From NCBI RefSeq assembly GCF_003018115.1, contig NZ_CP027457.1: a stretch of DNA of 64,000 bases. One strand, written 5' to 3'. The notes below the pieces were generated by a model. It searched no databases. It worked only from the letters and a program-made list of their open reading frames with translations, and was not told the DNA's origin. The DNA is from Escherichia coli (GTDB lineage Bacteria; Pseudomonadota; Gammaproteobacteria; Enterobacterales; Enterobacteriaceae). This document shows positions 36,686 through 47,575 of the stretch, piece after piece (the first letter of the stretch is position 1; every line of letters starts with the position of its first letter). Position numbers and translations under genes: made by a program.

Positions 36686-37822
36686 TTACGAAAGCCCGCT
36701 CCCCGCAAGGACTGACGCCAGATAGTTTCTGTCCATGGCTGCTTTTCGCATCTTACGTCTTAACCCTGCCTTGAATACCTTATCATTCGTCAAAATATTA
36801 ATAGCAATGTGCCGTATCCCTGAAAATAATTCCGCTGCATTTCCTCTTCTTATTCTGCAGTCGTCTTCATTCATTACCACGTCCAGGCGCCAGTGCAGCT
36901 TATTTTCCACGTGCCAGTGATTTCGGTTCGCTGTGGCGAACTTCTCTGCAGTTAAATCAGCAGAGCTGATATAATATCTGACCGTCATTTCGGGTTCTTT
37001 CTTTTGTTCTGCTATTATTGACCGAAAGGAGACTGCCACGCATAATTTCTTCAGCCCTTTCCATTCAAACGTGAAATCAATAAGTTCATCAGGGACATCG
37101 CAAACAATATGAAGACGGATTTCTTCTCTGCCGTGACTCTTTTCACTGATTGCGTAACTGTCATGCTCTGGATTATTTAATTCTTTCAGCGGAAATTTTT
37201 CCTCAAAGGCTTTATTTAGCCGCCCCTGGTTTCCTTTTACCGCGAATAAATAATCACCTCCCTGTTTTTGTATCTTCTCTGCAATATCTTTCTGGCAACC
37301 CATCGCATCAGTTGTGATGATTTTTCCTTTAATATCCAGCATGTTAAGAAGTTCTGGGATAGCTGTAATCTCATTAGATTTCTCATCCGTCCTGATCTGT
37401 CCGATGACCAGACTGTGCATTGTTGAGAACGCACTAATGACATGAATCGCTCCCCTGCGGCGACTCTTGTCATAAGAGTGCCGGAGCGTTTTTCCATCAA
37501 TTGCAATGACGTCTTTATCATCTGAAGAATGGCAGTCACGCATCCAGTTAATAAAGCACTCGTGAAATTTTGCAGGACTGATACAGGATACAACTCTGGC
37601 AATGGTATCGTGAACAGGAATACCATTTTCAAAATCACCATATTGCTTCAAAAAATCGAGATGTGTTTCCCCAAAATCCTCTATATCTTCCCAACCCTCT
37701 GCACCAGAAATGACGGCACAAATAGTCAACAGTAGAATATCTGACAATTTATGTTCTACTTTCCAGGCTTGTCTGTAATCGGGGATAATAGAAATATGTT
37801 CCATCAGTTTTTTAAGTTCCAT
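36686..37822 (-). mobile_element. ISAs1-family transposase (H-repeat-associated protein), complete
   Basis: 378 aa [60 protein letters not shown]... DDE transposase typical of Rhs-associated H-rpt. Confidence 0.9.
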
Positions 37823-38290
37823 TTTGTTCTCCTTATTTATGCAAGGAGTATTTGATCATATATAAGCTATGAAAAATAGTTTTAGGTAATAAGGAATATC
37901 TCAATTATTGAACATTTAGCGCGAATTATTTAGTACAAAAAGTGTACTTCTGATGACCTTTCCCTGCTCCAAAGTCTTCTAAAATCAACAATGTAGACTC
38001 TTAATTATATTTATCAACACAATAATCTATCCTATTACTATCTTGACAAGAGAGAACCGTTTTTTATTTAAATATATGATACACATCATTAAATATATAA
38101 CCATACTTTTTCATAAGGCAATCTAACTTAGCTCTTAAATCACCAAAACCCATCACACCATAACATCTAATAGCCATTGCCACACGTCACCATGGATTTA
38201 TTTCCACCTGCAATTACTTCGTCCTAACTTTAATTTAATCTCAAGAAGCATTAAGATCTCAATAGCGAGCTTAATACTTCTTGAATAATA

Positions 38291-38668
38291 TCACTCCTGA
38301 CCAAAATTTTTCCACACTAATGCATGAGACTTTGATTTGTCACCCAGAAATTTACTTACATCTTGCCAAAGTAAAGAATTGCTATCGGTCGCAGTGACTA
38401 TTGCCTCTATAAGCCCTGTAGCTACAACTGTGGCCAATTCATCATCAAGCGAGACCATACCATCTTCGACATGTTTAAATATTTTTTCTCTTTCAATATC
38501 CCCCATTTCATAAAAATTTTTTACAATCGTTTTTCCAACCTGAGAGAACAACATAACCACCGGTGGCGTTTCTGGATGCCAGTATTCATTAGCTAATGAG
38601 ACTGTCTCAGACAAAACAGTGGAAAATGATGCCATTTTTTCTATATAACTAGCAATATATTGGTTCAT
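38291..38668 (-). CDS. Putative Rhs immunity protein (RhsI), family unassigned
   Basis: 125 aa acidic ORF whose ATG shares one base with the Rhs stop (TAATG); AT-rich like the Rhs CT. Confidence 0.7.
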   Translation of the reverse strand: MNQYIASYIEKMASFSTVLSETVSLANEYWHPETPPVVMLFSQVGKTIVKNFYEMGDIEREKIFKHVEDGMVSLDDELATVVATGLIEAIVTATDSNSLLWQDVSKFLGDKSKSHALVWKNFGQE

Positions 38669-41600
38669 TACTTGCCTCCCAAAGCATTCTGTAAATCCTG
38701 AAGAACGTTTTCTGCTGCTGCTCGATCCCCTGGAGATGCTGTTGGATTCTTATCCAACCAATCCTGTAAAGCCCTTGTATAATCCTGTGCTTTCAATACA
38801 TGTCCTCTACCACCAACTTTTTCACCTGTGGCCAATTCATAACGAACAGCATCTGCTGTGCTTCCACTTCCTACTTTTGCATTTGGCCGATAAAGATCGT
38901 CTATAATATTTTTCAAATTTGAATCTGTAACGTCGGGTTTTCCCATTTTCTGTCGCAATTCATCTTTATACCGTTCATGCTGCATACGATCCCTTGCGCT
39001 ATTCTCATCTTCTGGTCCCCATCCTCCCGGGCTTCCCGTACTGCCGCCGGCCAGGCAGTTCTTCTCTTCATCCGTCAAATCCTTCCCAACATTCGGCTGA
39101 CTCCCTGACGAATTATCATTCTCATGTGGGCTATCTAAAGGACAACTACTGGTCCAGTAACACATTTCAGCCTGAGAATTTATTAACTGCCCATCGCTCA
39201 GAGCCTTCCCGGCACGCCCATCATTAGCGAGAAGGTCATATCCCATTGGCCCAGCGACCACAGCCATTGCTCCAAGAGCAGGGGCAGCAGACGCCATAGC
39301 CGCCGTGACTGCATCAAAAGTCGCCGCCCCACCCGAAAGTAACGCCCCCCCAAATTCTGTTCCTGTTACTGTTGTGGCAGAACCAAGAACCAGTGTCTCA
39401 CCAGACAACCCAAGAGGATCCCCCCGCTGCACCGGGTTCAGCGGATACGCATACAGGTTCCATCCCCCCTTCAGCCCAATGGGATCCTGGGTGATATAGC
39501 GTCCCTGCAACGGATCGTAGTACCGGTTCCGGTTATAGTACAGCCCCGACTCCTCATCATACTGCTGCCCCGGCAGACGGAGTGACTGTTGAAGGTGCTG
39601 CGCGCTGGTTTCGCCCAGCAGGTTTCCCCACTCGTCATACTCCCCCTGCCACGCCGTTTCCCCTTCCGGGCTGATGAGCGCCAGCGGCAGTCCCCGGTGG
39701 TCGCAGTGGTAAAGATGAAGTTTCCTCTCCGGGATGTATTCCGCCTCCAGCTGTGCGGCCATCTGCTCCGCCGTCAGCCCGCACTGCGCAAGCCATGCCT
39801 CACTCTCCGCACTCACCGCTCCCGCGCGCAGTTCCCGCTCCAGCCTCCCCAGCATCACCGACAGCTCCGCCGGTAGCGTCACACCCGTGTCCTCCTGCAA
39901 CACCTCCGCCAGGCTCCGGTGCCGCGCCTTCGCCTGTTCGCCATTCTCTGTTTCGATTCTCAGGAGCGGCGTGAAGCTCCCCGGCTGGTATACCGTCTGG
40001 ATACGCGTGGTGCCGGTCTGTATCGTCGTCAGCCTGTCACCGTCCCACCCGTACCATGTCACCTCCGGTTTACGCGACAGCGACATCCACCCCGTCAGGT
40101 CACGCTCCCGCCGCCATACCCGTTTTCCCGTCCGGCGGCCCAGCGGGTCATAGAGGTACCGGCTCTCCACCTGTGGTTCGCCGTGCTGTATCCGCGTGTA
40201 GAACACCAGGCGGTGCTGGCTGTCGTAGTGATAGTGGTGGGTGCGCTCGTCGTGCATCCGGATAACCCCTTCCGGGATACGGTCCGTCTTCTCCGCCAGC
40301 CTGCCGTATTCATCGTGGCGGTAGACATAGTGCGCATCCTCCGCGATGCGGTTATCCGGCCACGCCGTGAGCGTGCTGTCCGGGTGCAGTTCCGGGTCCG
40401 GCAGCCGGTTTCCTGCCGGGTCCGTCGCATACGGGATATCAATGTCCAGGTTCGCTGCCGTGGTGTGGACGCCCGTCAGCCTTCCCGTGCCGCTGTAACG
40501 GTACTCCCGGCTCTCCTGCGGGCCGCTGATGCGGATTAGCTGTCCGTTGTCGTTCCACGTATACTCACGGTCAAGCTGCGGAAGGTTCAGGTGCCTGCTC
40601 CGGAGCTGGCCGCTGGTATTCCAGGCGGTGGCAAGTTCATATGCCTCCCCGCCGAAGCTGCGGGCCGTCTCACGGTGCAGCCGGTCCCGCGTGTACTCGA
40701 CCAGCGGCGTTCCGCCCAGCTTCATCCCCGCAAGATAACCGCTGCCATACGTCAGCCACTCCACCGGCGGCAGACCGTCCGGCTCCTGACGGGTCGCCAG
40801 CCCCTGTTCGCTGTACGCATGCCCCGTCTCATGCTCCCACAGCATCTCCCCCGTCTCCGGGTTCTCCACCGTCTGCCGTTCGCCCGTCAGGCGGCCTTTA
40901 TCGTCATAGCCGTAGTGGACCGACACGCGGTGGCCTTCACTGGTATGGCTGAGGGTGGTTAACCACCCGTGCTCATCATACTGCCACTGCTCTGCCGGGT
41001 CGCCGTTCACCGTCCGGTGCGTGATGCGGTCCGACGCATCGTAGTGCCAGAGGGTGATAAGCCCCTCGTCTTCACTCTGCGTGAGTTTTCCGGTCAGGTC
41101 ATAGTGGTAACGTTGCGTCCGGCCGTCAAAACCGCGCTGTTCAGTCAGCCTGTCCACCGGGTCATACCGGAACGTGGACTGGCTGCCGTTCTCGTTGGTC
41201 AGCACGGTGATGCGCCCGGCAGCGTCATACCCCATGCTGCGCGTAAGACCGCCTTCCGTCACACTCACCGGACGCCCGTGTTTATCATATTCGATGGTGC
41301 TGCGTTTACCGTCCGGTGATATCGTTGCTGTCAGGTCGCCTGCGGCGCTGTACTCATAACGGATTTCACGCCCCTGCGCATCCTTCTGACTGACCAGTTG
41401 CCCACGCGGGTTATAACTGCTGTAAGTGCTGATGCCTTCCTCCCGGTGAACGGCGATTTGTTGACCGTACCAGTCATACTCATACCGCGTCGTGTACCCC
41501 GAGCAGTCCGTGAAGGCCCGAAGCTGACCGTACCGGTTTCGCGTTATTCTCCGCGTCACCCCGGTTCCGTCTTCCACCGCGCCGGGCAGGCTACTGCGGG

Positions 41601-43173
41601 GGGAGTCATAAAACCAGCGCGTAATGTTACCGTTGCGCGAGGTCTCTTCTGCCAGTCGGCCCTGACGGTCATATTTCCGGTTGCTGCGTAAACCATCCGG
41701 ATATGTCACTGAAGTCAGTTGCAACTGGCTGTTGTAACCATACCGTACCGTCCTGCCGTCCGGCAGTATCACTGAAGTCAGCTTTCCAGACGCCATATGC
41801 AGCCGGTACTCCGTCCGCCGCCCCGCCGCATCCGTCTGCGCCTTCAGCCTCCCCGCCTCATCATACTCGCTGCGGGTGATGCTCCCGTCCGCATGTTCCT
41901 TCTTCACCACACGCTTCAGGCCACCTTCGCCCTCCGTGTACAGCACCTCCCGCCGGTTCAGGCTGTCCGTGATGGTCACACGGTCCTGCCCGTACTCAAA
42001 GCGGTAGTCCAGCCCCTCCGGGTTGACCTGTTCTGTCACCCGACCGGTATCATCATACCGGTAGCGGCTCTCCGGCCTCCCTGCATAATGGTGCGCCACC
42101 ATCCGCCCGGCGTGCTGCACATCATAAGTAAACCCGCGCACCTGCGTCCCGCTGCGGTCATACACCGCCCGCAGTTCTCCGCTGGCCGTGTACGTGTAGC
42201 GCGCCAGCGGCGCAGTCGGCTGTTCATCCGGGTATGCCGGGTCGTGTGTCAGCCACACCGCCTCCAGCCGGATACCGTTATCGGCACCGTACTCTGTACC
42301 GGCGGGCAGCGTGTCGGGGAAAGCTGAAGAAAAGGAAGAAGAGGAAACAGAACGGGGACTGGCCGGGGAAGATAAGGAAGACTCGCGCTGTTTACGGAAG
42401 GCTTCCGCCCGCTGCGCCTGTGTGGTCAGCGCCAGGTGAAAACGGCGGCCCGCGCCGTCCGTCACCCCCGTCACCGCGCCCGCCACGTCACCCTCCGCCG
42501 CCCTGTGAAAGGCCAGCGTCCGACCAAAGCCATCCACCACGCCCGTCAGCACCCGGTATGCGGGCGGCTCCGGCGGCAGCACCTCGTCCGCCTCCGGCAC
42601 CCGCTCCGGCCAGCTGAGCACCAGCCACTGCCCGGTTGTGCTGACAGCCATCATATAGGTGTGTGGACTCAGACGGACCGCTTCCGGCAGCGCCCGCCAG
42701 AGCCGGGCCAGCGGGTGGCCTTTGTGTTGTTTCAGCACCCCACCCCTTGCCAGCCAGAGTGACTCGCTGCGGCTGTAGCTTATCTCGCCGGGAAACAGCG
42801 GCTCAAAGTGAATGCTCCTGCCGCCGTTGTCGTTGAGTATCAGTTCCCGCTCATGAATCTGTAAGCGGATATCAAAGGGGGCTTTCCAGCCGGGGCCAAA
42901 CACCCCCACCGGCGCGGGCGTCCTGGTCCGGTAACTGCTGTAGGCACGGGAAAGAATGAACGGCAGCGGGCCGGGCAGCGCAAGGTCCGTCTCGCCCGGC
43001 AGCACCTTCGCACCCAGTAGCGGGTTCACCGGGTTAGCATAGGTAATCCCTCCCGGACACACCGAGCAGGCCACTCCCGTCGGCGCACCTATCAGCACCC
43101 CCGCTGAACCCTGCACAATATCCAGTCCCTTGCGGGTCATATCACCCTGCCGCGCCGCCGGTTTTCCGCCCAT
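38668..43173 (-). CDS. rhs: Rhs-family polymorphic toxin: N-terminal PAAR-like region, YD-repeat core, variable C-terminal toxin domain
   Basis: 1501 aa; N-term [12 protein letters not shown]...[10 protein letters not shown]; many YD repeats; core ends [27 protein letters not shown]; ~245 aa CT encoded at 38671..39405. Confidence 0.9.
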
Positions 43174-43248: not shown

Positions 43249-45390
43249 TCAAAATTGCCGCATATCCGGCATTCCGGGGGGTAAATCTTTCGGCACAGGC
43301 GCATCCGGTACAGGTTGTGTGGCACCACAGTTCCAGTTAATCACCGGCGCATCACCGTTCACATCCGACTCCCCTTCCAGATGAATGTGCGTACCATTAA
43401 GAAATATGCTTCCGTCCTTCGTCAGCACCAGCCTTGCCTTACCACAGCAGAGTTCAAGATGCTCACCGGCAGAATAAACTGCTGTTTGTCCGGTGTTTTC
43501 CTTCATCGTCTTGCCCACCGAGAAGGTGACGTTATTCCCTACATTGACGCTGTAGCCCATTCCCACCATCAGTGATTTATGCAGCCCTACCTGTGAGGAC
43601 TGCAACAACGCCACCGAGGTATTCATAATGCCGCCTACCGTCGTCTGATACGCCACACCCACCGTCAGCGCACGAATGATCCCCACCTTTTCAACCTGGT
43701 TTGATCCCACTTTGATAATCTGGTTACTGCCCACCGTTTCCACCTGGTTGACACCAACCGTCTGTATCTGATTAACGCCAATGTTCTGGATCTGGTTATT
43801 GGTAACGGTGATCGCCTGGTTGTTACCTATTTTTTCGGCATGGTTGTTTATCACATCAGTGGTGCGGTTATTCAGCACCTCGGTGTTCATGTTCTTCTGC
43901 GCGTGGATGTAGACCTGTTCTTTCCCTGTCGCATCGTCAAACTTCAGTTCATTAAACCCGCTGCCCTTATAGGTTTTCGAACGAATGGTCATCTGCGTCT
44001 TTGTTCCCGGCAGGCTGCCGGGTGTGCGGTTTTCCTGGTGGTAGGTGCGCCCCATAATGATCGGCTGGTCCGGATCGCCGTTGAGGAAGTCCACAATCAC
44101 CTCCTGACCCACACGCGGTATCGCCAGGTTACCAAACCCGGTGCCTGCCCACGCCTGTGCCACACGGATCCAGCATGAACTGTCCTGGTTTGACGGGTTA
44201 TAGCGGTCCCAGTTAAATTTCACCCGCACGCGACCATGTTCGTCGCAGAAGATTTCCTCGCCTGCCGGTCCCGTCACGACGGCGCTCTGCGGGCCATCCA
44301 CCAGCGGTTTCAGCAACGGCTGTGGTCGCCATGTTCTGTCTGCCGGTATTACCGCAAAATGGTTATCCAGCGTGGTGCCTGAACCCCTGCGTCCCGGTAC
44401 CGCCTGCGGCTGTTCGCCGTGAAGATCGCTCGCCACCACCTGCCATTCCCGGTTCAGGTTCGCCTGCGGATGCCCCGTCAGCACAATTCGCCGTCCCGGC
44501 CATATCTCCGGCGAACGGCTTGTTCCGCGCGCCACTTCTGCGTTGTTTCGCCAGCCATCCATCTGCCAGCGGGCAAAGTTCTGCCCGTGGGCACCCTTGA
44601 AACGTCCGGGGTAGTCATACACTTCATACTGTGTGCGCTGGTAATCCTGGTACTGGCCTTCCTGATCAAAACGCCCTGCCCAGCCGGGTCGTTTAAAGGT
44701 GTAGTCTTTGGTCACCACGGAAGAAGGGCGGATTTGTGCGCTGTAGCGAAACTGGCTGATGCAGAGGGTGCTTACCTCGGTACGGGTGTTCGGATTCCAG
44801 GGGATCTCAAAGGACTCCGGCAGATAACGCACGGTATCGCACAGGACCAGGCTCTGGTCGGTACTTTTTTGCGCGTGCTCCTCATAAAAGAAGATGCCTT
44901 CCTCCGCCGCCATCCGGCACAGGAAATCGTAATCAGTCTCACCGTACTGGACACAAAACTCACGGGAAGGATGCGGTTCACTGAACAGCGGACTCCACTC
45001 GGTCACCCCGTTTTCCTGCAATATCGTGCCGAGGATGCTTTTGATGTCCTCGTTCTGGAAGATACGGAAGTTCTGGCGCAGCCCTGTGCGCCACAGCGGC
45101 GGGCATACCTTCATGCTGTACAGCTTCTGGTTTTTGTCGTTCTCCCCCAGTTCAAACCAGGTCACCACACCTTTCACCCGGCGCTGTACGTCATCGCCCT
45201 GCCATATCGTCAGGTAGGCCATTTTGTCGAGGATCTGCTGGAATTCAAGGGAGAGAAACTGCTGGCTGACCAGAGAGAGAGCGAGGGAAAAAAGCGAAGA
45301 GAGTGACTGGTTCAGATGAAAGGAGACCACCGCAAAAGCATCCGGTGGCAGGCCGTCCACTTCCAGCGTGAAACGTAATCCGGTTGACAT
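43249..45390 (-). CDS. vgrG: Type VI secretion spike protein VgrG
   Basis: 713 aa; gp27/gp5-like VgrG; 75 bp upstream of rhs. Confidence 0.9.
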   Translation of the reverse strand: MSTGLRFTLEVDGLPPDAFAVVSFHLNQSLSSLFSLALSLVSQQFLSLEFQQILDKMAYLTIWQGDDVQRRVKGVVTWFELGENDKNQKLYSMKVCPPLWRTGLRQNFRIFQNEDIKSILGTILQENGVTEWSPLFSEPHPSREFCVQYGETDYDFLCRMAAEEGIFFYEEHAQKSTDQSLVLCDTVRYLPESFEIPWNPNTRTEVSTLCISQFRYSAQIRPSSVVTKDYTFKRPGWAGRFDQEGQYQDYQRTQYEVYDYPGRFKGAHGQNFARWQMDGWRNNAEVARGTSRSPEIWPGRRIVLTGHPQANLNREWQVVASDLHGEQPQAVPGRRGSGTTLDNHFAVIPADRTWRPQPLLKPLVDGPQSAVVTGPAGEEIFCDEHGRVRVKFNWDRYNPSNQDSSCWIRVAQAWAGTGFGNLAIPRVGQEVIVDFLNGDPDQPIIMGRTYHQENRTPGSLPGTKTQMTIRSKTYKGSGFNELKFDDATGKEQVYIHAQKNMNTEVLNNRTTDVINNHAEKIGNNQAITVTNNQIQNIGVNQIQTVGVNQVETVGSNQIIKVGSNQVEKVGIIRALTVGVAYQTTVGGIMNTSVALLQSSQVGLHKSLMVGMGYSVNVGNNVTFSVGKTMKENTGQTAVYSAGEHLELCCGKARLVLTKDGSIFLNGTHIHLEGESDVNGDAPVINWNCGATQPVPDAPVPKDLPPGMPDMRQF

Positions 45391-45549
45391 AGCAACCTCC
45401 GGGGTTAAGGAAAAACAGACAGTTCGCTGTTAAAGCGGCTGTGACAGTACAGTGTTACGCTTGCGTTCAGGCACGCTACCGCCGAAGTTTCCGGCAGCCG
45501 CCATCTCCCGTGAACGTAACCCCTTACTGACAACCTTTCTTTCTACGGC

Positions 45550-45592
45550 GTAATACAAAAACAGCATCCGGCCTGATAGCCGGATGCTGTTG
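45550..45592 (-). terminator. rho-independent terminator/attenuator after hcp
   Basis: Perfect 11-bp stem CAGCATCCGGC/GCCGGATGCTG with 6-nt loop, followed on the minus strand by TTTTTGTATT. Confidence 0.7.
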
Positions 45593-45599
45593 GCTTAAC

Positions 45600-46118
45600 T
45601 TATGCTTCCAGCGGTGCGCGCCAGTCGTCGGCACCGGAGGTGCCAGATTTGACGTGTTCCCATTCAATTTTGCGGTAGGCCAGTGAAACTTCGAGCAACT
45701 GGGTGAACTCGCGTTTCGCCGGGTCCTGGCAATGCGGCATATGCAGTTTCATATCGACAATCGTCGAATCAGTCAGGCGGGTAGTGAAATAATGCTCCTG
45801 TTTGCCTTCCACAGAGGTACGCCACCAGTGAAGTTCAGTGGTTGGCAGCATTTCGCCGGAGGCCAGTGCGTTGTACATCAGCGGAACCGCTTTGTTCAGC
45901 GCCACGGTAAAAATGAAAGGCTTGTGAGCACGCTGACCCGCAGGCTGACCGGACTGAGGATCGGTCGGGACAGTAACGTTATGCAGGAATTCCTGCACCA
46001 GCATCTCGTCTTCGTGCCCCTGCACATAGATGTTGCCGACAGAATCAGCGGTAAATGCACCTGCAGTAATATTTCCCTGGGTCTGACCAGTGATGGAGAT
46101 ATAACACGGTGTTGGCAT
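45600..46118 (-). CDS. hcp: Type VI secretion tube protein Hcp (TssD)
   Basis: 172 aa MPTPCYISITGQTQGNITAGAFTADSVGNIYVQGHEDEMLVQ. Confidence 0.9.
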   Translation of the reverse strand: MPTPCYISITGQTQGNITAGAFTADSVGNIYVQGHEDEMLVQEFLHNVTVPTDPQSGQPAGQRAHKPFIFTVALNKAVPLMYNALASGEMLPTTELHWWRTSVEGKQEHYFTTRLTDSTIVDMKLHMPHCQDPAKREFTQLLEVSLAYRKIEWEHVKSGTSGADDWRAPLEA

Positions 46119-46412
46119 TTGTAAACTCCTTGTTAACGTGGTTAATTACTACTTACAATGACCTGCCGTTAATCCCAGACAGGCAGATGCAGCTCACTTC
46201 ACGGAACCGCATCATTTTTCAGTATTTTTTACATACAAACCGAGCTAGAATTTACGGTTGTCGTAAAAACTATTTTTAAAATCATTAAATCTCTTATTCA
46301 GCAATAACTTAATAATATATATCTGGATAACCATACCCAACTGTTCAAAGTCCGTATTGCCTCCATAAAATGGCCAAAGCTGAATCATGAATAAATATTG
46401 TATTTATCCTTT

Positions 46413-46432
46413 CTGAATTATCATTTTGATAA
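46413..46432. promoter_or_regulatory. Fur-box-like AT hexamer repeat in hcp/tssB divergent control region
   Basis: GAATTATCATTTTGATAATT resembles GATAATGATAATCATTATC. Confidence 0.3.
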
Positions 46433-46815
46433 TTTTTGAGATATTCCTTAAAAATACCCACTTAATCAATCACAAAACAAATATATAAACAAGCAATCAT
46501 TAGATTAGCTTATGTTTAATAAAATTATTATACAATTCAATAAGATGAATAAAAAACCCTATATTTAAATTATTGCCATAATACACCTGACGCGAATTAC
46601 ACAGGTTCACACAATCTATTTAACGCTTGCAGAATACCCCTCTTTACGATCGATAAAAAGTCCTTTTCTTATTTATTTTGAAGCGTAAAATGCGGGGTGA
46701 TGAAGGAGTGGTGATTTTATTTTCACCGCCATTAGGGCGGCATTGCCGATATTTTTTTGCGGTACAAATATGCCGTGTTCATGGCCTGTACGAGATAACA
46801 TGACGGATCACTTTT

Positions 46816-47316
46816 ATGAGCAAAAAATTTGAAGGCAGCGTCGCGCCTCGCGAGCGTATTAATATATCGTATGTCCCAAAAACAGATGGCCAGACGGCTG
46901 AAGTGGAACTTCCGCTTAACATGCTCGTTGTCGGCGATACCGGAAATACGCAGGAAACATCCCCACTGGATGAACGTCAGGCAGTTTCCGTTAACAAGCA
47001 CAATTTCGGTGCAGTGATGGCTGAAGCAGCCATTGGCCTCAATTTTACCGTCCCTGCCACACTGAAGGGAAGCACAACGGACGATGAGCTGAATGTGGCG
47101 CTGAATATCAAGTCACTGGATGATTTTTCACCAGATAGCGTGGCCCGGCAGGTTCCGGAAGTGAATAAATTGCTGGAACTGCGTGAAGCACTGACTGCAC
47201 TGAAGGGGCCGATGGGTAACCTTCCGGCATTCCGTACCCAGCTCCAGGCATTGCTGGAAAATGAAGAGTCCCGCGAGCAGTTGCTCAAAGAAATCGGCCA
47301 GGTGAGCAATAAATAA
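46816..47316 (+). CDS. tssB: T6SS sheath small subunit TssB (VipA)
   Basis: 166 aa MSKKFEGSVAPRERINISYVPKTDGQTAEVELPLNMLVVGD. Confidence 0.9.
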   Translation: MSKKFEGSVAPRERINISYVPKTDGQTAEVELPLNMLVVGDTGNTQETSPLDERQAVSVNKHNFGAVMAEAAIGLNFTVPATLKGSTTDDELNVALNIKSLDDFSPDSVARQVPEVNKLLELREALTALKGPMGNLPAFRTQLQALLENEESREQLLKEIGQVSNK

Positions 47317-47350
47317 CCACCACTATTTCATTAAACAGGGTTATCCAGGC

Positions 47351-47575
47351 ATGACGGCACACAAAAATATCTCCGGGACATACCACCTCTCTGTTGCAGA
47401 CATTCTGCAGGTGGTTTACCAGGTATGTTTCAGCCCGTCCGTTGAAATCAACCAGGATGGTGTGGCTGCGCTGATTACAACACTGGATCGCCGTATCAGT
47501 GATCTATTGGATGAGATTATCCATTTTTGTGAGTTTCAGCAGAGCGCGTCGCACTGGCAGCGCGTACTTCACTGA
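47351..47575 (+). other. 74-aa ORF paralogous to the N-terminal region of TssC (fragment or divergent duplicate)
   Basis: ...ALITTLDRRISDLLDEIIHFCEFQQSASHWQRV aligns to TssC ...SMIADIDERISRQMDVIIHAPAFQQVESFWRSL (~40-45% identity over ~60 aa). Confidence 0.45.

Follow-up and report, generated by a model that had tools for sequence, protein, structure and literature searches.

The hcp3-tssB spacer of EHEC has been studied as a bidirectional promoter, termed "t6sP" (PMC13141884). Deletion of hns in EHEC raises the z0254, z0264 and z0267 transcripts (PMC5363993) and the mRNA of tssB, hcp3 and vgrG3, with a slight increase in the output of the t6sP reporter (PMC13141884), and earlier work cited in the latter paper is said there to place bound H-NS between hcp3 and tssB. 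The deletion alone yields little protein (PMC13141884). Changes in salt, pH, medium and temperature do not induce the EHEC T6SS (PMC5363993), and when t6sP luciferase reporters were followed in many media, the Sci-1-inducing medium included, no condition consistently activated either promoter. The signal that activates T6SS-2 has still not been found by anyone (PMC13141884).

Related E. coli systems provide points of reference. The hcp2B/vipA2 region of the APEC/ExPEC T6SS2 (Ma et al. 2018, PMC5874247) is H-NS-repressed and has the same architecture as the locus considered here; inactivation of hns in APEC raised clpV2 and hcp2B, and these genes are regulated neither by iron limitation nor by Fur repression. 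In the sci1 cluster of EAEC (T6SS-1; Brunet et al. 2011, PMC3145626), another E. coli system, the T6SS promoter is likewise located upstream of tssB and is poorly expressed in rich medium. A stretch of 53 nt in this promoter contains three GATC sites, and a Fur box that overlaps the -10 element encloses one of these; the overlap of GATC and Fur box is the mechanism of the sci1 switch. Compared to the Fur consensus, the boxes shown to function in sci1 agree at no more than 13/19 and 11/19 positions (PMC3145626).

Here we analyze the spacer between hcp and tssB in a 64,000-nt stretch of E. coli chromosomal DNA (called the window below), and compare it with these systems. We will argue that the region very probably serves T6SS-2, located in the island next to yafV, ivy and fadE, as bidirectional sigma-70 promoter and leader region, and that it is silenced by H-NS. 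The silencing of both transcription units, and the finding that removal of H-NS is insufficient for protein production, come from the published work; we infer in addition where the two core promoters lie, that an activator would be needed at the conserved boxes, and that CsrA may act on the hcp leader as a further layer.

We start with the identity of the locus. A sequence-only reading of the window had described an AT-rich divergent region of about 700 bp between hcp-vgrG-rhs and the tssB operon and had taken it for the control region of two diverging T6SS units. The spacer indeed occupies exactly 46119..46815 (697 bp), and the same spacer has been published as t6sP. The leftward unit consists of hcp, vgrG (43249-45390) and the gene of a PAAR-less Rhs protein (38668-43173), and the rightward unit of tssB, a 74-aa ORF, tssC, tssE, tssF and further genes. 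Among 5426 complete E. coli genomes, O157:H7 included, the spacer is present in 2235 (about 41%, which is the share that carries T6SS-2), with one copy per genome and 95-99% identity. It is 97.7-98.6% identical to the spacers of O157:H7 and other E. coli; for O157:H7 strain H2495 the value is 97.7% over 100% of the length, and the cluster of that strain adjoins yafV, ivy and fadE with the same gene order as in the window. The T6SS-2 of O157:H7/EHEC (Wan et al. 2017), which is H-NS-repressed and silent in the laboratory, has the same locus, gene order and spacer length. The bases that differ between the two spacers (ca 2%) are clustered at 46520-46620 and in the tssB leader at 46725-46745, the boxes identified below are invariant, and there is no essential difference, the window representing another E. 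coli strain. The cluster is E. coli T6SS-2 and the spacer is the known t6sP. The region is hence an ordinary regulatory feature that has already been described, and the only additions made here are the conserved elements in Table 1, which are put forward as hypotheses.

Table 1. Features of the hcp-tssB spacer and its flanking genes (positions in the window; candidate elements are predictions).
Feature	Position	Strand	Basis
hcp (172 aa), which opens the hcp-vgrG-rhs unit	45600..46118	-	ORF; Pfam T6SS_HCP, E 5e-31; Hcp-family protein annotated in O157:H7
AT-rich divergent intergenic region, 697 bp; published bidirectional T6SS-2 promoter region "t6sP"	46119..46815		GC content; 2235/5426 genomes; PMC13141884
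hcp Shine-Dalgarno sequence AAGGAG	46126..46131	-	Read from the sequence; block kept in four of the four closer lineages compared
hcp leader hairpin CCUGUC-loop UGGGAUUAAC-GGCAGG; the loop contains GGA; candidate CsrA site	46162..46186	-	Folding and conservation
Conserved block AATCATGAATAAATATTGTAT with -10-like TACAAT (46402 to 46397); candidate hcp promoter	46383..46403	-	Conserved in 3/4 lineages
Fur-like box of the earlier reading; exact inverted repeat AATTATCA-N3-TGATAATT	46416..46434		12/19 of the Fur consensus, 10.7 bits
Conserved 14-mer TGAGATATTCCTTA; candidate transcription-factor site	46437..46450		Comparison of spacers
Candidate activator site, conserved box AGAATACCCCT; predicted tssB start about 57-67 nt downstream	46631..46641	+	Conservation
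GATC site 1; chance occurrence	46648..46651		Absent at this position from E. albertii and all other relatives
A-tract (ATAAAAAGT, UP-element-like; 46653-46661) followed by weak -35-like TTTTCT (46664-46669)	46653..46669	+	AAAAAGTnCTTnTC conserved in seven closer sequences
-10-like TAAAAT of the candidate tssB promoter, within conserved GCGTAAAATG; start predicted near 46698	46686..46691	+	Conservation
Conserved element GTTCATGGCCTGTACG in the tssB leader	46777..46792	+	Kept in all four lineages
GATC site 2; shares bases with the tssB Shine-Dalgarno sequence (GGAT)	46806..46809		GATT in Yokenella, C. youngae and E57-type; GAAC in ExPEC type
tssB (166 aa), which opens the structural operon	46816..47316	+	ORF; Pfam T6SS_VipA, E 1e-51; annotated as tssB in O157:H7

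The base composition of the spacer is extreme. Its GC content is 0.33, with a low of 0.25, compared to 0.53 for the whole window; values of 0.22-0.31 extend across 46200-46700, and the two 300-bp windows with the lowest GC of all 64 kb are both located inside it. TpA steps occur at 10.3 per 100 bp, compared to 4.2 for the window. The spacer has in this respect the AT-richness of an H-NS-silenced, horizontally acquired promoter. The high-affinity H-NS nucleation motif has the consensus tCGATAAATT, and three matches with two mismatches were found (at 46362, 46426 and 46650), such matches being expected in AT-rich DNA. The AT-rich spacer would constitute a nucleation platform for H-NS, which would keep the unit of hcp, vgrG and rhs as well as the tssB operon silent under ordinary culture conditions, as others have shown on near-identical DNA. 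H-NS silencing had been suggested from the AT-richness, and the published work on the near-identical EHEC spacer supports it; taken from that literature together with the base composition, it is the established regulation of this sequence. The Salmonella SPI-6 T6SS belongs to a different T6SS subfamily and has an unrelated promoter sequence. Its promoter is likewise AT-rich and horizontally acquired, and is reportedly silenced by H-NS and inactive in vitro (Brunet et al. 2015, as cited in PMC5363993 and PMC5874247).

To place the spacer in its family, 13 hcp/tssB spacers were compared, namely those of the window, O157:H7, E. albertii, Salmonella enterica, Yokenella, C. youngae, the E57-type E. 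coli cluster and the ExPEC type, together with five more distant ones from Superficieibacter, C. farmeri, two Enterobacter and Buttiauxella. All 13 are 536-754 bp long and have a GC content of 0.29-0.34, compared to 0.44-0.54 in the flanks. Length, AT-richness and a divergent layout thus characterize the spacer throughout the family. The conserved boxes were also sought in the five more distant spacers and none was found there, length and AT-richness being what is common to all. In the closer lineages the shared blocks coincide with the promoter elements. One should bear in mind that the conservation of the boxes could reflect shared ancestry instead of selection.

The ExPEC type (L016) is the proper comparator for the APEC T6SS2. 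The second cluster of the E57 type (L002) was also considered for this role and set aside, as it is a rare variant found in 29 genomes. As in the window, an hcp-vgrG-effector unit diverges in the ExPEC type from tssB-tssC-tssE-tssF, across a spacer of 701 bp with a GC content of 0.32, and the two loci share the -10-like box, the A-tract with the -35 block, the 14-mer and the hairpin in the hcp leader. On the other hand, the ExPEC-type TssB is only about 59-70% identical to that of the window, the spacers cannot be aligned by BLAST, and the ExPEC type has neither the Fur-like palindrome nor a GATC at either of the two positions. The small ORF present between tssB and tssC in the window is also missing there.

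We now consider the rightward promoter. The eight loci of the closer group all carry the motif GTA(A/G)AAT at corresponding places in the alignment, with the ATG following 91-131 nt further on, and the five more distant loci lack it. In the window, the -10-like hexamer is separated by 16 nt from a -35-like hexamer that matches the consensus at only 3/6 positions, which is the reason why a simple promoter scan missed the tssB promoter. The A-tract upstream of the -35 may be read as an UP element. Judging from this conservation, tssB is probably transcribed from a promoter that combines a good -10 with a weak -35 and the upstream A-tract, which would give a leader of about 118 nt.

Two ideas about this leader were considered. 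The first, in which the element at 46777-46792 would mask the tssB start codon, came from RNAalifold, which pairs the conserved GCUCAUGGCC with the ribosome-binding site and the AUG. It was rejected, since the duplex energy of the window has a z-score of 0.04 relative to shuffled upstream sequence and the energies give no consistent signal across the loci. The second was a leader structure, for which the fold has a z-score of -2.4, but the hairpins are deleted in the group of Salmonella, Yokenella and C. youngae and mutated in O157:H7. A scan of 45500-47500 with the Rfam covariance models returned nothing at E <= 1.

On the leftward side, the promoter scan pairs the -10-like TACAAT on the minus strand with ATGATA at a spacing of 16 nt, and the -10-like hexamer reads TATAAT in Salmonella and in the E57-type cluster. 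The conservation suggests that hcp is probably transcribed from this position, with a start predicted near 46390 and a leader of about 270 nt. A 5'-RACE study of this promoter has reportedly been made by Kim et al. (2022, J Microbiol 60:928), and the -10 and -35 elements predicted here may disagree with it.

When the leaders of seven loci were folded as single sequences, the hcp leader hairpin formed at this place in the six relatives, with differing stem sequences; the minimum-energy fold of the window is a different one, although the pairing can form. Among the E. coli lineages the loop retains its sequence. CsrA is reported to repress hcp3 and tssC (PMC13141884), and we infer a link between the hairpin and this protein. 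A post-transcriptional layer is plausible, in which CsrA would act on the GGA hairpin of the hcp leader and on the ribosome-binding sites that contain GGA.

It is important to note that the removal of H-NS does not complete the activation of the cluster. Something more seems to be needed, because the hns deletion alone gives little protein and no tested medium activates the reporters (PMC13141884). The weak tssB -35 and the two conserved boxes suggest that an activator or anti-silencer would still be required once H-NS has been displaced. The box AGAATACCCCT is found within one mismatch in 3/4 lineages and with two mismatches in the fourth. The 14-mer, with the general form T(A/G)AGATATTCCTTA, is shared by three spacers that have diverged deeply, those of the window, of Salmonella and of the ExPEC-type E. 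coli cluster (the last two with TAAGATATTCCTTA), and in the window and the ExPEC type it is located at the same distance, 248-249 nt, upstream of the -10-like box. We propose these boxes, together with the weak -35, only tentatively as the sites of a T6SS-2 activator or anti-silencer, a proposal that we consider possible rather than probable. If it is correct, they would be a direct handle on what turns on a widespread T6SS that is silent in the laboratory. The promoter elements and boxes in Table 1 are modest but testable pointers for the activation of T6SS-2.

One option for such an activator is an RcsB-like response regulator, or another activator, that binds the 14-mer and/or the box at 46631-46641 upon envelope or competitor stress, and that would add to the H-NS silencing instead of replacing it. 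The recurrence of the 14-mer, its equal spacing in two of the three spacers and the conservation of the second box some 60 nt upstream of the predicted tssB start are in line with this. The RcsB consensus is TNRGA-N4-TCYNA, which the 14-mer fits at 7/8 specified positions. The T6SS of Serratia is controlled by RcsB (PMC5565961), and a review reports RcsB control of a T6SS, which may be a different cluster, in an extraintestinal E. coli (PMC10482370). However, the RcsB pattern occurs in the spacer at the chance level (2 observed, compared to 2.5 in shuffles), the spacing of the half-sites in the 14-mer is one base shorter than in the RcsAB box, and the 14-mer is absent from Yokenella and C. youngae. 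We consider this option unlikely, and with a chance-level count and a spacing that is off by one base, the 14-mer as an RcsB box is a weak lead only.

Another option is that Fur represses one or both promoters through the sites at 46390-46408 and 46416-46434, and that iron limitation switches the cluster on. The sequence-only reading had placed a Fur-like box at 46413..46432. The string at this position, CTGAATTATCATTTTGATAA, exists, but its score cannot be distinguished from that of shuffled background. Compared to the 19-bp Fur consensus, the spacer reaches at best 13/19, at 46390-46408, and 12/19, at 46416-46434; these two sites overlie the candidate hcp -10 and -35, respectively. Among dinucleotide shuffles of the spacer, about 90% reach at least 12/19 and 41% at least 13/19. 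We also built a rough Fur weight matrix from 11 Fur-regulated promoters of K-12 (fepA-fes, fepD-entS, fepB-entC, fhuA, fur, cirA, fecI, fecA, ryhB, fiu and exbB), which served as positive controls and were scored by leave-one-out. The top score of the spacer is 10.7 bits, at 46416-46434, compared to 10.8 +/- 2.3 for the shuffles, 49% of which score at least as high. The K-12 promoters score 9.0-18.5 bits, nine of the 11 being above the spacer (11.6-18.5 bits), and they reach 12-16/19 of the consensus although they are 2-8 times shorter than the spacer.

The consensus matches are weak in both the window (12-13/19) and EAEC sci1 (11-13/19), and the sequence alone is compatible with weak Fur binding, since the proven sci1 boxes are no better (PMC3145626). 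T6SS-1 is furthermore under Fur control in both EAEC and APEC (PMC3145626, PMC5874247). Against this, the left arm of the palindrome is altered in E. albertii, and neither the ExPEC-type cluster nor the group of Salmonella, Yokenella and C. youngae has the palindrome. Neither iron nor Fur has an effect on the APEC T6SS2 (PMC5874247), which is indirect evidence for the window because the ExPEC-type spacer has no palindrome and aligns with that of the window only in blocks. In addition, the EHEC reporters were not consistently activated in the Sci-1-inducing medium or the others (PMC13141884). Taken together, these results make regulation by Fur improbable. In the H-NS-silenced sigma-70 region that we favor, the palindrome has a simpler reading, as a pair of -35-like hexamers placed back to back, with ATGATA on the minus and TTGATA on the plus strand; the promoter scan takes both arms as -35 hexamers and pairs them with divergent -10s.

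We also considered that the promoter might depend on sigma-54 and an enhancer-binding protein, as do T6SS clusters of Vibrio, Pseudomonas and some Klebsiella. Such control is common in other T6SS families (PMC10482370), but the sequence itself gives no support for it: a search of 46119-46815 for TGGCAC-N5-TTGCW with up to three mismatches returned no match, in agreement with the earlier statement that no convincing -24/-12 element is present, and in the homologous O157:H7 cluster no gene of an enhancer-binding protein is annotated. The only sigma-54-like match nearby, at 46102-46117, has three mismatches, spans the hcp start codon and faces tssB from about 700 bp away, and over the whole window such matches are fewer than in its shuffles. 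This option can be dismissed with near certainty.

A further option is an epigenetic switch of the EAEC sci1 type, in which Fur shields a GATC from methylation and the methylated GATC blocks the rebinding of Fur. Control by Fur and Dam as at this known E. coli T6SS promoter had been proposed for the present locus. The spacer does have two GATC sites, both found in O157:H7 and the second also in E. albertii. The mechanism requires, however, a GATC inside the Fur box, and no GATC within a Fur box overlapping a -10 was found in the 697 bp, the nearest site (46648) being 214 bp from the Fur-like site. The layout of the sequence thus already contradicts the switch, and we give it practically no chance.

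The number of GATC sites leads to the same result. Two in 697 bp is not an over-representation: 2.1 are expected from the base composition and 1.6 from dinucleotide shuffles, 49% of which contain at least two, and the average of the window is 3.5 per kb. The spacers of Yokenella and C. youngae contain none. The sci1 cluster belongs to another T6SS family with another gene order, and where it has three GATC in 53 nt, both GATC of the spacer are more than 200 bp away from the Fur-like site. Neither is conserved: site 1 is gone in E. albertii, and site 2 reads GATT or GAAC in other lineages. Site 2 also overlaps the ribosome-binding site and not a promoter element. A part for Fur and Dam in the regulatory picture is not supported, and the sci1 model is not transferable to this promoter, which saves the pursuit of a wrong lead. 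As to the coordinates given earlier for the two sites, those of the first (46648..46651) are right, and the second, placed at 46805..46808, is actually at 46806..46809.

Finally, small ORFs inside the spacer, at 46245-46388 on the minus strand and at 46678-46803 on the plus strand, were considered and rejected, their frames being broken by indels in E. albertii and other relatives.

The Hcp protein is well conserved. Comparison of the window's hcp (45600..46118) with the compared hcp/tssB loci L002, L004, L005 and L006 gives 97-99% protein identity among E. coli variants, E. albertii, Yokenella and C. youngae, while the adjoining TssB is merely 59-93% identical in the same comparison. This difference between neighbouring genes suggests that Hcp is under very strong constraint or, alternatively, that the hcp module has been swapped between clusters.

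We now consider the hcp leader, i.e. the minus-strand RNA upstream of hcp. Folding calculations place a hairpin at the point equivalent to 46162..46186 in six relatives; the stem sequences differ among them, and a GGA is found within or beside the loop. In the window the minimum-energy fold of the leader is different, yet an equivalent pairing is possible. Together with the AAGGAG ribosome-binding site, the hairpin looks like a candidate two-site CsrA target. Repression by CsrA has been reported for hcp3 (PMC13141884).

The divergent hcp/tssB spacer also contains repeats. Three copies of the hexamer ATACCC are present on the plus strand of the window (46333, 46454 and 46634), compared to an estimated expectation of ca 0.2, and two of them lie in a 21-nt imperfect direct repeat at 46328 and 46449. 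Conservation in other species is limited to the third copy, which is located within the conserved box AGAATACCCCT upstream of the predicted tssB transcription start.

In strain 300709 (H11, NZ_CP025903.1), the spacer match falls into two parts, and the annotation beneath it shows an IS1A-family transposase: a natural IS1 disruption of the T6SS-2 promoter region. In the O157:H7 strain H2495 (L001, 33753-38735), the annotation marks tssA and tssM as pseudogenes with frameshifts, which agrees with the reported degeneration of the EHEC T6SS (PMC12981562). Another locus, L003 (DXKH01000078.1), is labelled as a Citrobacter sp. metagenome-assembled genome. Its Hcp and TssB are 100% identical to the window proteins. 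The contig probably belongs to E. coli and was mis-binned into a Citrobacter genome.

Two further open reading frames are listed in the table. The one between tssB and tssC gave no match in a Pfam search. It resembles residues 50-102 of TssC (34% identity, pairwise E 2e-8), and may be a TssC N-terminal-like mini-protein. Salmonella has a 70-aa ORF in the equivalent position, with 40% identity to that of the window. The ExPEC-type, E57-type, Enterobacter, C. farmeri and Buttiauxella clusters are without it, and their tssB-tssC gap is only ~20 nt.

Open reading frames considered in the window
Feature	Length	Position	Strand
ORF between tssB and tssC	74 aa	47351..47575	+
Putative immunity ORF	125 aa	38291-38668	

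After the hcp/tssB spacer, the segment at 37750..38300 (GC 0.27-0.31) has the highest AT content in the window. It is located directly downstream of rhs, and spans the end of the putative immunity ORF and the DNA beyond it. This segment is probably a further H-NS target or recently acquired DNA.
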